IMG/VR virus record: IMGVR_UViG_3300042901_002340
Origin: a virus
Taxonomy: Duplodnaviria; Heunggongvirae; Uroviricota; Caudoviricetes
Length of the DNA stretch: 64,000 nucleotides
Direction: 5' to 3' (one strand)
Shown here: one piece after another, positions 52,257 to 63,790 of the stretch
Position numbering within the stretch: position 1 is the first letter of the stretch
Layout of the letters: each line of letters begins with the position of its first letter
Notes under the pieces: model-generated
Database searches by the model: none
Told to the model about the DNA's origin: nothing
The model's input: only the letters and a program-made list of their open reading frames with translations
Position numbers and translations under genes: made by a program

Positions 52257-52288
52257 AAAAAAGGCCTCCTTTTCGAGGAGACCTTTTT
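52257..52288 (-). terminator. Attenuator-type terminator ahead of tRNA block 1
   Basis: Minus strand aaaaaggtctcct-cgaaa-aggaggcctttttt. Confidence 0.85.
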
Positions 52289-52311
52289 GATATTTATTAT
52301 GTTACCTAATA

Positions 52312-52404
52312 TCAATACTCTCTCCTCATCACAATAGACGATTCACAAGTTGAACTTGTGTGATCTAAATGTAATGTATCTAATATGTACTGTATTTGTG
52401 ACAT
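52312..52404 (-). CDS. Putative attenuator leader peptide 1 (30 aa, MSQIQYILDTLHLDHTSSTCESSIVMRREY)
   Basis: Short ORF between promoter and terminator; GAGGAGA in last codons complements terminator 5' arm TCTCCTC. Confidence 0.75.
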   Translation of the reverse strand: MSQIQYILDTLHLDHTSSTCESSIVMRREY

Positions 52405-52415
52405 GATTTTTATTT

Positions 52416-52503
52416 TTATAGATTTATATATCTAATTGATTTTAATATTTTATGCAAATTTAAGGAAATGTTTCGAATAAAAAAAATTATTTTTGATTTT
52501 TTT
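52416..52503 (-). promoter_or_regulatory. Dual promoter block (TAAATTTGCA and GATATATA) heading tRNA block 1
   Basis: Near-identical to 63701-63790. Confidence 0.75.
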
Positions 52504-52516
52504 CAAAATTTATTTA

Positions 52517-52544
52517 AAAAAAGTCACTCTTGCGAGTGACTTTT
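52517..52544 (-). terminator. Intrinsic terminator after Ro60 gene
   Basis: aaaagtcactc/gagtgactttt inverted repeat with U tract on minus strand. Confidence 0.85.
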
Positions 52545-52561
52545 CATTTTTTTGTGATTTA

Positions 52562-54142
52562 TTAGATCACAATGGCTTCGATTTCTCTCAAAATTGCTTT
52601 TGGATCAACCTCAGCTTTTTTGATCATCTCGTAGATATCAGCAGAGTAACCAAAAAGTTGAACTAATTTGTTACCTGGTTTGAACATGGTTGTACCATAT
52701 CCTTGAATATCCACCGTGTAGATGAACGGCTCACCGTGTTTAGATTTGTAAGATTGGAAAGAACTGTTTGTAACGATTCTATCACCACCTTGTAAATCCG
52801 ATATGATGAAGACGCGGTCATATTTACCGCTTGATTGTAAAGTTGAGAAGATTGAACCGAAGTCCGTACCGTGTCCAACCCTACCTTGTAAGCTTAAACA
52901 TGTGTTTTTGATAGTGTTTATGCTATCACCTGGATTGTATCTAATATCCTCAGTTGTTGTTGCAAATTGATATAAATCAGCACCAATACCTTTTGCTAGG
53001 GTTGCTCCGATAAGAGCAGCTTTATCGATACAGTGTTTATTGATAGCTTTACCATTCATTTTAACACCTTGACCCATTCCGTGCATAGATCCTGACGTAT
53101 CTATAACAACAGCAGTTCTACCATGTGAGAATAATTCAACCAAGTTTGGTATTGCTAACTCGTAAGCTTTATTTAAAGCAGTAACGAATGGTCTAGATGC
53201 AGAAGCACTAGTTTCTTGTAAAAGAATCTCCAAAGCAATATCTATTTGGTGTGGGAAAACCAATGATTTTCTGATTAATTTCTCATCGATTAAAAGCTCA
53301 CATGCTCCACTAACTAATTCAGAGTTTGCGCTTGTGTTGATGATGTTTCTTAAGTTACGAAGCAATGCCAAGTAACCAATTTTTCTTGTTTTAATCAATT
53401 CAGCATAGTTGCTTTCTTTAGCCTGTGTTAATTCAACTTCAGCTTGAGCCTTGGTGATTTCCCCAGATTTAACTTTTGCAGCAACATCTTGTCCAGCTTT
53501 TGAGTTTTTATCCTCAACTGTATTGAACTGTTTTAATTTACCGGTCATAAGATCTTTAAAAACACCTTCCATTTGTGTGGTTGCTGGTTTTGGACGAACC
53601 AAGTTAACAACATCCACAAGAGAAACTGATTTTCCTTTACCTTGATATTTAGCTAATTCGTAGGTATCTGCTGATTCCAAAGCTGCTTTAAAACCTTTCT
53701 TCATTGAGTTAGGTAATGGTTTACCTGGATTGAAGTGTTGGTAAGCTGCAATGATCTCTAATACGTCATCTAAACGGTTTACAATACCCCCGGTTTTAGC
53801 ATTCTTATCTCTTTTTGAGAAGAATCTTTTACCTATGGCTGAACCAGATAAATGTTTAACTAATGACACAGATCCAAAGTGTGTTACAGATCTTTGTCCA
53901 ACAACTGTTCTCGCGTACACGAGCGCTTTCGCGACGAATTCAATATCTTTTTTAGATAATTCGTCGATGAGTTGAATGAGTCTATTCTCTCTATCTGATA
54001 ATTTTTCGTAGTATGAATTGTCTAATCCAGTGGTAAGAATTGCAATTAATTCCAATTTTGGATCATACTTCACACCAGTACCACCTTGGTGGTTTGTAAC
54101 TGTCTCTACAGTTCTTTTTACTTTTTGGTTGTAACGTGACAT
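52562..54142 (-). CDS. Ro60/Rsr TROVE-vWA RNA-binding protein
   Basis: TNHQGG N-terminus, YELAKYQ, LVDVVNLVRP, YLALLRNLRNI, vWA DTSGSM, GTDF, IISDLQ, GYS. Confidence 0.92.
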   Translation of the reverse strand: MSRYNQKVKRTVETVTNHQGGTGVKYDPKLELIAILTTGLDNSYYEKLSDRENRLIQLIDELSKKDIEFVAKALVYARTVVGQRSVTHFGSVSLVKHLSGSAIGKRFFSKRDKNAKTGGIVNRLDDVLEIIAAYQHFNPGKPLPNSMKKGFKAALESADTYELAKYQGKGKSVSLVDVVNLVRPKPATTQMEGVFKDLMTGKLKQFNTVEDKNSKAGQDVAAKVKSGEITKAQAEVELTQAKESNYAELIKTRKIGYLALLRNLRNIINTSANSELVSGACELLIDEKLIRKSLVFPHQIDIALEILLQETSASASRPFVTALNKAYELAIPNLVELFSHGRTAVVIDTSGSMHGMGQGVKMNGKAINKHCIDKAALIGATLAKGIGADLYQFATTTEDIRYNPGDSINTIKNTCLSLQGRVGHGTDFGSIFSTLQSSGKYDRVFIISDLQGGDRIVTNSSFQSYKSKHGEPFIYTVDIQGYGTTMFKPGNKLVQLFGYSADIYEMIKKAEVDPKAILREIEAIVI

Positions 54143-54557
54143 GATTATAATTGTTTATTCGTTTATATTATAAAATTGAGTTATCGAAAAGATAAAGCAT
54201 ATAGACCAGGTCAAATGCAAGATCAATGTCAAAGACCTTCCTCTATCGCAAAGGCAAGGACAAAAACTAAGTCTCGTTAGTTAGCCAATTATCTGCCTAG
54301 TGGTAAAGAGGTATCTTTCTCTATGGCTTTCAGTAACTTGTCTAACAATTGAGTTCTATCTCAGTTTTGTTTATTTTTATAGAAGAAGCGGAGTTTTGAG
54401 GCTCCCGAAGGAACCTCACAATTGCTGTATATGATTAATAGTCATTTATCTTATAAGATAATGGCTTGACGCCATTAATTAAAGGACCTTATCTCTCCGA
54501 ATCAAAGCATCAGGGGAATCGGCTTTTGCTTACCCCATCAGCACCTCAATTTATTTT

Positions 54558-55481
54558 TTATTTTTCTAGTTGTTTCAGAAACTCATCAACAACTGGTTGG
54601 AATCTAGCATCAACCTCGATTTTAAGGTTTACCGCTTCCGTGATTTTATTCTGACGCTCAGTTTCGAAATCTAGCTGAGCTTTTTTATAATCAGCTAGCC
54701 AAGATTCTCTCTTTTTGCTGTACTCGTTCATAGAAAGAGCATTTTTCTCGTTTACCTCAGCTTGCGCATCGGCATTCAATTTAGAGATTCTTGCATTCTC
54801 CTTGGTTACTGAATTCTTAACCTTCGATTTGAAGTAGTTAACTCTTTGTTCATAGCCTCTATGAAGAGCTGCCAACTCCTCGTGTGTTTTTAATAGTTCC
54901 TCAGACTTGTGATGCACGTTAACCTTGATAGGTGTTTTCTTACCCACCTCGACCTCCATAAACTCAAGGAGCTGAATCTTAGGCAATTCAGATCTTAAAC
55001 GATCTAACGTTCCACCTTTATGTATGAATTGACCTATGTGTGAAGCATAAGCCTCAGCCTCGATGAATTCATTATATTCTTCCATTGAGAGTTGTTCCCA
55101 ACCCCAATCCTCACTAACTTGAGAAAGAACTTCAGGTTGAACACTAGGTTCCCTCGTCGGTGCCGGATTTTCATTCTCGTAATCGAAATACTCGGTTTTG
55201 ATCCCGTTTATCATCACATCCTTAGCTTTTATATTCTCCATTAGGAAAGCCTGGGTTGCATGCAATCTCGCCTTTGATTTAAGAAGTTCTACAACATCAG
55301 TAGGCATAGGTTTTGCAGCGGTTAACTTATGATCCTCCTTAGAGATCTTTATCGTTTTTGATGCGTTATTGATATCAGCTAAAGCTGCAGTGATATCTTT
55401 TGATCTTTGGTTACAAAGATTTGATACTGATTGAGCTTGAGACATTGATAATCCTTTTGATGCTAATGAATTTCTTTTCAT
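54558..55481 (-). CDS. Coiled-coil hypothetical protein upstream of Ro60
   Basis: 307 aa clean ORF. Confidence 0.8.
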   Translation of the reverse strand: MKRNSLASKGLSMSQAQSVSNLCNQRSKDITAALADINNASKTIKISKEDHKLTAAKPMPTDVVELLKSKARLHATQAFLMENIKAKDVMINGIKTEYFDYENENPAPTREPSVQPEVLSQVSEDWGWEQLSMEEYNEFIEAEAYASHIGQFIHKGGTLDRLRSELPKIQLLEFMEVEVGKKTPIKVNVHHKSEELLKTHEELAALHRGYEQRVNYFKSKVKNSVTKENARISKLNADAQAEVNEKNALSMNEYSKKRESWLADYKKAQLDFETERQNKITEAVNLKIEVDARFQPVVDEFLKQLEK

Positions 55482-63008: not shown

Positions 63009-63079
63009 CACGGATAATAGGGGTCGAACCTATATCGGAAGTTTTGGAGACTCCTATGCTACCATTGCACCATACCCGT
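63009..63079 (-). tRNA. tRNA-Trp(CCA)
   Basis: Cloverleaf, loop CTCCAAA, G73. Confidence 0.93.
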
Positions 63080-63083
63080 TTGT

Positions 63084-63311
63084 TTACCTAGTTGACTTAT
63101 GGAACTCGTTGTTCTCTAAAGCCTTTCTAATGTACCTCATAAAGAAGATGGCATTATCTTCAGCTAACAGAGTTGCCTCACCTATATCATTCAGTCTAAC
63201 AGGAAATGTGTGATCTGCTCCTTCAACGAAAACGTTGTAATAAGCGATGTCATTCTTTAGATACGAGAATCTAACTTTGTTGTTCTTTACGATTTCTTTT
63301 ATTGTTGCCAT
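63084..63311 (-). CDS. Phage hypothetical protein
   Basis: FPV..NDIG.ATLLAED.AI.FMRYIRKA. Confidence 0.75.
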   Translation of the reverse strand: MATIKEIVKNNKVRFSYLKNDIAYYNVFVEGADHTFPVRLNDIGEATLLAEDNAIFFMRYIRKALENNEFHKSTR

Positions 63312-63401
63312 TTCATTTATTTGTTTTTTAGAAAAGACCTATCAGATTAAAAATTCTGTCTTTTGACCCATCAAATTTTTTATCCTGTCTTTCCTTATTT
63401 G

Positions 63402-63475
63402 TCGGGGTAGCCGGACTCGAACCGACGACCTCCTGCTCCCAAAGCAGGCGCGCTAACCAACTGTGCTACACCCCG
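63402..63475 (-). tRNA. tRNA-Pro(TGG)
   Basis: CGGGGTG acceptor, loop TTTGGGA. Confidence 0.95.
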
Positions 63476-63488
63476 TTAATTTCAATTC

Positions 63489-63523
63489 AAAAAAAAAACT
63501 CCAGATCTTTTAGGATCTGGAGT
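63489..63523 (-). terminator. Attenuator-type terminator ahead of tRNA block 2
   Basis: Minus strand actccagatc-ctaaaa-gatctggagt followed by long U tract. Confidence 0.9.
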
Positions 63524-63559
63524 AAAAATATTTAATGCTTATTTGACTAGTGCTTTACA

Positions 63560-63688
63560 TTAAATTATATTGTGACCTCCAGATCCCTTGCTGTACCCAT
63601 TATACCATTTGGCAATGCCCACCTGATTAAATGGTGCAACGCTCTGCGGCATAAACGGTTTTACAATATTTCTGAAAGTTGTTTTCAT
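63560..63688 (-). CDS. Putative attenuator leader peptide 2 (42 aa, MKTTFRNIVKPFMPQSVAPFNQVGIAKWYNGYSKGSGGHNII)
   Basis: Short ORF between promoter and terminator; GGATCTGGAG (63577-63586) is the exact complement of terminator 5' arm. Confidence 0.78.
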   Translation of the reverse strand: MKTTFRNIVKPFMPQSVAPFNQVGIAKWYNGYSKGSGGHNII

Positions 63689-63700
63689 TGTGTTTTTAAA

Positions 63701-63790
63701 TTATAGATTTATATATCTATGTTGATTTTAATATTTTATGCAAATTTAGGAAAAAGTTTCGAATAAAAAAAATTATTTTTGATTTTTTTT
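63701..63790 (-). promoter_or_regulatory. Dual promoter block (TAAATTTGCA and GATATATA) heading tRNA block 2
   Basis: Near-identical to 52416-52503. Confidence 0.75.

Follow-up and report, generated by a model that had tools for sequence, protein, structure and literature searches.

Candidate leader-peptide attenuators with matching codon content precede two tRNA gene blocks of a 430-kb phage genome

The window analysed here is the whole stretch of 64,000 nucleotides taken from the IMG/VR virus record IMGVR_UViG_3300042901_002340 (Caudoviricetes). Two blocks of tRNA genes on its minus strand each begin with a cassette of the same order: a promoter, a short leader open reading frame (ORF), an antiterminator/terminator, and then the tRNAs. 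The codons of each leader match the anticodons of the block that follows. From sequence comparison and RNA folding models, the cassettes are very probably functional. We consider it likely, with good confidence, that they work by ribosome-mediated attenuation, as negative-feedback sensors of tRNA supply or decoding capacity.

The leader-1 ORF (52312..52404, minus strand, as are all features below) comprises 30 codons. Its promoter region (52405..52514) exhibits a TAnnTTTG element at 52462-52455 and the motif GATATATA at 52432-52425, and is separated from the upstream TROVE operon by an insulating terminator at 52515..52544 (52522). The antiterminator strand of leader 1 (52321..52327, codons 26-28) is complementary to 52281-52275 in the 5' arm of attenuator terminator 1 (52256..52288), the stem of which (52288-52258) is followed by a U-tract. 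The leader-2 ORF (63560..63688, 42 codons) follows a promoter region at 63689..63800 with the -7 element TAnnTTTG at 63748-63741 and GATATATA as second element at 63717-63710. Its antiterminator strand (63577..63586, codons 35-38) is fully complementary to the 5' arm (63522-63513) of attenuator terminator 2 (63489..63523; a 10-bp stem at 63523-63498 and a U-tract). The start context of the leader ORFs is A-rich. In a scan of 45.5-64 kb, the two attenuator terminators are two of three strong minus-strand terminator matches, and the first tRNA lies about 25-35 nt past each of them (Ser-TGA at 52225, Pro-TGG at 63475). These coordinates bear out the original prediction, made from the letters of the window, that a promoter region, a short ORF, an intrinsic terminator and the first tRNA succeed each other at both blocks. 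The 3' part of each leader was also said to complement the 5' arm of its own terminator, and it does so through 7 bp and an additional inner helix spanning the stop codon in leader 1, and through 10-11 bp in leader 2; the leader-2 orthologue in the relative L002 has an antiterminator duplex of -18.5 kcal/mol (rank 1 of 18). The shared promoter region of about 85 nt stands in part: the regions upstream of the two leaders exhibit 90% identity over 79 nt in a repeat comparison, but copies of the core promoter number about 20 genome-wide.

Codon-anticodon pairing was scored with conservative wobble rules, using in-frame segments of the phage's own genes as background. Leader 1 exhibits cognate codons for all 11 of the 11 block-1 anticodon classes (P = 4 × 10-4) versus 5 of the 14 block-2 classes, and leader 2 for 13 of the 14 block-2 classes (P = 0.0095) versus 6 of the 11 block-1 classes. 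Own-block tRNAs read 20 of 29 codons in leader 1 and 31 of 41 in leader 2 (backgrounds 0.36 and 0.47). Coverage and contrast were jointly reached by 0 of 200,000 in-frame phage gene segments for leader 1 and by 10 of 200,000 (5 × 10-5) for leader 2. The composition match thus exceeds chance, as expected from the original prediction: an exact reassignment of anticodons between the blocks gives p = 2.3 × 10-5, and a block permutation at the amino-acid level p = 9.4 × 10-5. Ile and Met were left out of the latter, which is therefore independent of the Ile2 assumption discussed below. Leader 1 does contain every block-1 amino acid and no K, F, P, N, G, A or W. For leader 2 the presence of every block-2 amino acid and the absence of L, D, E and C were equally found, but its only Arg codon is AGA, which is not read by the block-2 tRNA-Arg(ACG); L002 has CGA at this place. 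The predicted sensing windows span codons 2-23 of leader 1, with all block-1 anticodons except Met, and codons 2-31 of leader 2, with 13 of 14 block-2 anticodon classes.

The same correspondence is observed in other phages. Discovery loci were fetched via two neighbouring proteins and leader DNA patterns, and leaders were called by a composition-blind rule (a terminator followed by at least 3 tRNAs, and an ATG ORF of 15-60 codons ending 25-130 nt upstream). A candidate leader is present at 84 of the 85 qualifying discovery sites, in 18 families; evident miscalls (family 3, a lipoprotein-like gene; family 11; N16-N18) were kept in the statistics. The partition of the arrays differs between phages, and the leaders match the contents of their own block. 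For instance, L006-L008 have three cassettes (W/E/D/A/K/R/G/T/L/Y, L/R/C and S/Q/P/F/N/V/I/H), each with a matching leader. Permuting blocks in the 15 partial-block discovery families gives a sum of z of 34.4 versus 3.4 ± 5.6 under the null (p < 5 × 10-6), a result that also holds without the families of this window. Phages with a single long array (16-20 amino acids, except in two short calls) have one leader of 44-51 codons; these single-array leaders (family 0) hold 19-20 amino acids in 25 of 25 members, the chance expectation being about 1% for 20 and 6-11% for at least 19. A held-out set was located only by a T-run plus boxA-like pattern, and leaders at least 40% identical to discovery representatives were removed. 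A tRNA is found within 300 nt of 64 of the 83 pattern matches with room for one, and a terminator hairpin directly before 79 of 90. The 24 held-out families yield a sum of z of 48.9 versus 3.3 ± 6.1 (p < 5 × 10-6). The co-variation of leader content with rearranged arrays, proposed as a check of the original prediction, is therefore seen in both sets.

The match extends to synonymous codons. With both sets pooled, 227 codons are cognate versus 165.6 expected from the codon usage of this phage (z = 7.05), and 150 split-box anticodons are covered versus 125.4 expected (z = 4.6); the Leu codons before tRNA-Leu(TAA), for example, are TTA in 3 of 3. Block amino acids are concentrated before the antiterminator (pooled sensing-window coverage 0.988 versus 0.898 when shuffled, p = 2 × 10-9; 78% versus 50% block residues), which links the codon signal to RNA geometry. 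A leader tail pairs more strongly with the arm of its own terminator than with those of others (discovery, -240.7 versus -136.6 ± 11.4; held-out, -380.2 versus -215.6 ± 13.0; both p < 5 × 10-6), and the median pairing is -13.6 kcal/mol versus -5.95 kcal/mol in 102 control pairs of short ORFs and terminators (p = 7 × 10-8). In family 0 the leader tail and both terminator arms co-vary (permutation p = 3 × 10-5), and in the leader-2 orthologues of L030 and L033 tail and stem are rewritten in step. The distance from stop codon to stem is 22-37 nt in 40 of 45 families. The leaders are conserved as ORFs, a point on which the original prediction could have failed: the ratio of nonsynonymous to synonymous polymorphism (pN/pS) is 0.38-0.39 in both window leader families, as pooled from non-independent pairs, and the leader 1 protein is identical across five genomes, with synonymous changes only. 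Leader peptides of separate families share no sequence.

Nascent RNA was folded with a ribosome footprint of 30 nt placed at each codon. In this model the antiterminator forms with the A site up to codon 23 in leader 1 or codon 30 in leader 2, and drops within the next 1-3 codons. Codon 23 of leader 1 is its sole Ser(GGA) codon, and no new class other than Met is sampled after it; in leader 2, codons 28, 29 and 31 (Trp, Tyr and Gly-TCC) are the last to add one. Met aside, the modelled switch falls just past the last newly sampled codon. The antiterminator and terminator helices are predicted to be mutually exclusive and under ribosome control, in agreement with the co-variation above. The mean antiterminator probability is 0.56 without a ribosome, 0.67 with a ribosome in the 5' half and 0.10 with one near the 3' end. 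In folding without kinetics, the ribosome-free nascent RNA also forms the antiterminator (0.58 for leader 1, 0.91 for leader 2), so that the default for untranslated RNA is probably read-through; long hairpins occur within both leaders, and a his/trp-type termination by a 1:2 protector is not predicted. The his/trp-type layout proposed originally thus stands for the leader, terminator, antiterminator and control codons, but probably not for the fate of untranslated RNA. Compared with codon-order shuffles, the leaders are somewhat better folded (mean z -1.5; 17 of 45 below -2), and this folding could supply a pause hairpin.

We infer that the leaders are translated in the course of transcription and that the arrays are induced in vivo as follows. 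RNA polymerase would transcribe the leader with a ribosome trailing behind. When all sampled codons are read fast, the ribosome would be at the last leader codons before the terminator is complete, the antiterminator strand would be covered, and transcription would end ahead of the first tRNA. When one of the sampled tRNAs is lacking, has been cleaved or carries no amino acid, the ribosome would lag in codons 2-23 of leader 1 or 2-31 of leader 2; the free strand would then capture the terminator 5' arm and the polymerase would enter the array, crossing in block 1 a boxA element at which Nus antitermination factors are probably loaded. The loop would be one of negative feedback, because the product tRNAs read the leader's own codons. 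The switch alone would gate the proximal tRNAs (Pro, Trp and Gln; Ser x3, Thr, Cys, His and Leu), and would add an inducible increment to the distal tRNAs with promoters of their own.

Such internal promoters were identified with a position weight matrix (PWM) built from the genome-wide TAnnTTTG-type copies. A host-type promoter between tRNA-Gln and tRNA-Lys (62863..62896, match ~62862; PWM 48.3), conserved in L002, L003 and L021, bypasses attenuator 2. Another precedes a 57-aa ORF and tRNA-Arg(ACG)/Ile(GAT) (57343..57376, match ~57342; PWM 49.5). Two more before Ile2/Glu/Asp/Met (48354..48476, matches ~48442 and ~48353; PWM 41.5 and 45.7) bypass attenuator 1, with at least one copy in L001-L003, L020 and L032. 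All four score like or above the leader promoters. In the matrix scan they are conserved in close relatives but were not detected in L030 and L033. Judging from these sequences, Lys through Val, Arg/Ile and Ile2/Glu/Asp/Met would have an attenuator bypass, at least early. No host-type promoter other than that of the leader precedes the proximal tRNAs.

The motif GATATATA lies 28-29 nt before the start of both leaders and is enriched upstream of genes. It also occurs before the portal and sheath genes, and is therefore probably a phage late-type promoter element; it is further found before several endonuclease-type genes within the blocks. A basal early supply from the internal promoters, with an attenuator-controlled top-up able to run late, is plausible. 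In many single-leader (family-0) phages, a host-type promoter-like sequence is seen by eye right after the attenuator terminator, although the matrix did not score it (L004 4586, L041 4905, L045 4422), and the leader shows only a TATATT-type element. This suggests early constitutive and late attenuated transcription in those phages.

A boxA-like 12-mer (52242..52253) directly follows the U-tract of terminator 1. It recurs past the terminator in 7 of the 18 discovery families versus 4 of 126 controls. In the rRNA operon of one Flavobacteriaceae genome, a near-identical motif is found after the spacer tRNAs and before 23S, which we take to be the spacer-boxA position. At the terminator of cassette 2 no boxA-like motif was found; a copy lies instead at 62845, after the internal promoter. 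From its position and prior knowledge of boxA, the element may allow a polymerase past the attenuator to acquire rRNA-type antitermination and to cross kilobases of untranslated RNA.

Several points weigh against attenuation as proposed. At full-length equilibrium, terminator 1 is favoured almost wherever the ribosome stands (0.47 at codon 6, at least 0.82 elsewhere); the finished terminator 1 being more stable almost throughout, switching needs co-transcriptional kinetics. No polymerase pause site was identified at the leaders, and transcription-translation coupling in Bacteroidota is a presumption of the model. The nascent-fold measure is not specific, since a lipoprotein gene also scores 0.5. 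Most isoacceptors are sampled by 1-3 codons, and in the Elf-Ehrenberg model a low fraction of regulatory codons lowers attenuator sensitivity (PMC1183508), so that only severe depletion may switch. The response would accordingly be insensitive to mild shortage and tuned to the near-complete loss of any one input. Because of the host-type promoters inside both blocks, accompanied by late-type motifs from homing-endonuclease genes, the distal tRNAs cannot depend wholly on the switch. The original claim that ribosome stalling induces the matching block is supported by permutation, co-variation and ORF conservation, but the blocks are not single units. Finally, the families were cut at 40% identity and are not phylogenetically independent, which makes the p-values optimistic; the effect sizes nevertheless leave little room for chance.

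A chance origin, with ordinary small-protein genes before ordinary terminators and the peptide as the function, can accordingly be given hardly any weight. There is no shortage of short AT-rich ORFs (14 kb contain 196 of at least 20 aa), and a third tRNA block follows a lipoprotein-like gene and a terminator with no codon match (z -0.28). Coincidence is nevertheless excluded at p < 5 × 10-6 in two sets, subject to the caveat of non-independence; besides the held-out permutation, co-variation and positional bias speak against it, as does the lack of shared peptide sequence across families. Only slightly less improbable is a vestigial or minor switch, inherited but largely bypassed in this genome, with an effectively constitutive output. 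The four internal promoters and the late-type motifs inside the blocks would fit it, as would the promoter-like sequences past the terminator in single-leader relatives. Leader 1, however, has kept an identical protein in five genomes with synonymous changes only, the proximal tRNAs lack another host-type promoter, and both leaders still sample distal tRNAs.

The remaining alternatives concern the trigger. A general translation-speed timer would react whenever ribosomes are slowed, be it by shut-off, antibiotics or ribosome shortage, and the codon match would only calibrate loop closure once phage tRNAs are present. It would agree with the read-through predicted both without a ribosome and for any ribosome position upstream of the boundary, with the insensitivity of one codon per isoacceptor, and with the response of the Anabaena trn operon, described below, to general translational stress. 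We regard it as unlikely: a generic timer does not need a block-specific, isoacceptor-level codon choice, and a genome in which each block has a leader of its own implies separate inputs. A sensor of amino-acid starvation, as in biosynthetic operons, would read charging rather than tRNA loss and be unrelated to anti-phage tRNases. Its mechanism would be the same and its trigger alone different. The match is strong at the amino-acid level, and a ribosome cannot tell uncharged from absent tRNA; the switch would be tripped alike by tRNA that is cleaved, degraded, uncharged or in excess demand. Yet extra tRNA does not relieve an amino-acid shortage, and synonymous choice tracks the encoded anticodons (z = 7). 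Such an isoacceptor-level match argues for tRNA loss over amino-acid shortage, and starvation sensing appears still more doubtful than the timer. Nothing here ties the switch specifically to an anticodon nuclease, and a nuclease trigger is unproven. The most far-reaching version of tRNA-supply sensing is accordingly held tentatively, at somewhat less than an even chance. By this version, the cassettes would be a widespread viral sensor reading the tRNA pool isoacceptor by isoacceptor, an inducible counter-defence against tRNA-cleaving immunity, rewritten as arrays are reshuffled, coupled to an rRNA-type boxA, and spread to Flavobacteriaceae chromosomes.

What is proposed is a known mechanism, leader-peptide attenuation, with a new target and a new logic. 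All defining features of leader-peptide attenuators that can be tested are present in the cassettes, but those of T-boxes, and probably those of the classical his/trp subtype, are not. In common with the enterobacterial thr (Thr/Ile), ilvGMEDA (Ile/Leu/Val), his, trp and pheA attenuators (PMC1183508), they would have a translated short leader, control codons upstream of the antiterminator, mutually exclusive antiterminator and intrinsic terminator, and a ribosome-polymerase race. The enterobacterial attenuators control enzymes, whereas the viral cassettes would control tRNA genes whose products decode the leader. Enterobacterial leaders use codon runs for 1-3 amino acids, whereas phage leaders sample 8-20 amino acids with 1-3 codons each; the classical single-amino-acid run of his/trp is absent from the multivalent window leaders, and single-residue runs are found in other phages. 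Unlike in enterobacteria, no dominant 1:2 protector is predicted and lack of translation probably means read-through. The Escherichia coli pheST (pheM) attenuator controls phenylalanyl-tRNA synthetase. It likewise matches a translation component to charged-tRNA supply by leader-peptide attenuation, but for one amino acid, with a protein output and in a cell. T-box riboswitches bind one tRNA directly, without a ribosome; the Rfam T-box model gave no match at E ≤ 1 in 45500-64000, with weak sub-threshold matches on the terminator hairpin only. T-boxes and antibiotic-responsive leaders (bmrB, msrDL) share a terminator/antiterminator control that reports tRNA state or stalling, and the bmrB/msrDL-type leaders use nascent-peptide arrest motifs, not codon sets that fit the tRNAs downstream.

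The closest counterpart in function is the trn operon of Anabaena PCC 7120, a 26-tRNA L-array induced by translational stress via the repressor TrcR (PMC8421152, PMC10272220). It is likewise a mobile tRNA array with homing-endonuclease and RNA-repair neighbours that is switched on when translation is impaired. Unlike in the phage cassettes, control there acts at initiation through a DNA-binding RHH repressor and is not codon-specific; the words 'attenuat', 'leader' and 'terminator' are absent from PMC8421152. The excerpts available on T5-like phages describe a tRNA-rich region that counters retron-Eco7 and PrrC (PMC11555353) and PARIS (PMC11464382). Phage tRNAs there offset tRNA-cleaving defences and their expression level matters; a strong promoter is described, and those excerpts do not mention a sensing element. 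Consistent with the original prediction, to which no attenuator controlling phage tRNA arrays was known, no account of attenuated tRNA genes turned up in a literature search in which few subscription journals were covered.

For more than 50 years it has been an open question why tRNA genes are present in phages (PMC10264068). If the switches work as predicted, the tRNAs are produced when needed, upon failure to decode specific codons, and the balance would tip towards the replacement of lost host tRNAs and away from a steady codon compensation. The role of phage tRNAs would then be testable with a 250-nt reporter, and attenuation would extend to non-coding outputs and 20-input logic. Leader codons would record the tRNAs whose loss a phage anticipates and so hint at the targets of host tRNases, and leaders could act as biosensors of tRNA status.

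The same leader-terminator-tRNA design is found in the GenBank huge phages LR756501 (735 kb) and LR756502 (642 kb), where a Leu-rich leader precedes five tRNA-Leu genes and a run of seven Gln precedes four tRNA-Gln genes. At least 8 leader-terminator cassettes occur in the two genomes, several of them nearly monovalent (Leu; Gln): at 11673, 18313 and 32612 in LR756501 (L208), and at 5888, 6581, 18111, 38907 and 39839 in LR756502 (L209). The words 'attenuat' and 'leader' are absent from the huge-phage paper on the 735-kb phage. A terminator scan found none before the 23-tRNA array of the cultured crAss001-like phage OQ221552, and the design is therefore not universal. Leader-terminator-boxA-tRNA array cassettes were also identified on five bacterial contigs (L200-L204; Flavobacteriaceae and Bacteroidia). 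In L200, before a 14-tRNA array, the sensing window covers every block amino acid found in the leader (all but Arg); the L203 antiterminator is weak (-5.9 kcal/mol). The cultured isolate Pseudotenacibaculum haliotis KCTC 52127 carries a chromosomal cassette (NZ_JBHULH010000004.1, L204 1476-1930) with a partly decayed array, among the housekeeping genes gcvT, aminopeptidase P and topoisomerase, and could serve as a native test system. The cellular pattern is rare in this family, being found in only 1 of 401 Flavobacteriaceae genomes, a lower bound because the search used an exact pattern.

The contents of the two blocks are as originally described. Block 1 (47002..52225, closed by a terminator at 46963..46996 (46969)) encodes Ser(TGA), Ser(GGA), Thr, Cys, His, Leu(TAA), Ser(GCT), a CAT tRNA that is probably Ile2, Glu, Asp and a last, weak CAT tRNA. 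The latter (47071-47002) scores 27.7 bits and was missed by ARAGORN; like initiator tRNAs it appears to have a 1:72 mismatch, but it lacks a GGG:CCC anticodon stem. Block 2 (56771..63475) encodes Pro, Trp, Gln, Lys, Tyr, Asn x2, Phe, Gly x2, Met, Ala, Val, Arg(ACG) and Ile(GAT), interspersed with HNH/GIY-YIG-type and other ORFs, and is closed by a terminator at 55528..55565 (55534). Seven GIY-YIG/HNH-type or similar ORFs lie between tRNAs, most with their own GATATATA motif (61338-60679, 50131-49445, ~49153-48493, 56712-56098, 62376-61918, 51797-51138 and ~46917-46393). Three near-identical SegE-like copies begin behind a short palindrome directly after a tRNA 3' end. Within the blocks there are also stretches of degenerate tRNA-like or structured non-coding sequence at 58396-58485 (32.2 bits on the tRNA model), 47085-47175 and 57120-56960; the relatives L002 and L003 exhibit intact or suppressor-like (TTA anticodon) calls there. 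A YqeY gene (GatB C-terminal-like, tRNA-binding) lies inside block 2 at 57375-57899. Block 2 ends with tRNA-like/Y-RNA-like elements (55576..55992), including a YrlA-like one (55866-55738) of 33.8 bits (E-value = 4 × 10-5), below the gathering score; the tRNA-Gln called by ARAGORN at 55992-55919 may belong to this set. These elements sit one operon upstream of the Ro60/TROVE gene (52562..54142) between the blocks.

ARAGORN identified 28 tRNAs in the phage genome, 26 of them inside the window and all 26 on the minus strand. The third tRNA block (Arg-TCT and Leu-TAG, genome 187633-188243), outside the window, has a plain host-type promoter and no attenuator; AGA is the dominant Arg codon of the phage (29.5 per 1000). 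No genes for bS21, RtcB or TilS were found in the genome. Membership of the bS21 phage clades is therefore not supported, and an Ile2 tRNA would need the host TilS. In searches of GenBank phage DNA, only tRNA and HNH matches were obtained and a 307-aa neighbour protein had no match, so that no cultured relative was found. The promoter ending in TAnnTTTG corresponds to the Bacteroidota consensus, and its roughly 20 copies suggest a Bacteroidota host; a sigma-70 promoter scan was uninformative (58 matches versus 61.6 expected). The genome, within which the window lies, is complete at 430,120 bp, with direct terminal repeats and 35% G+C. It carries T4-like capsid, portal and sheath genes, with two T4-type portal genes in tandem at genome C1 271968 and 273589.

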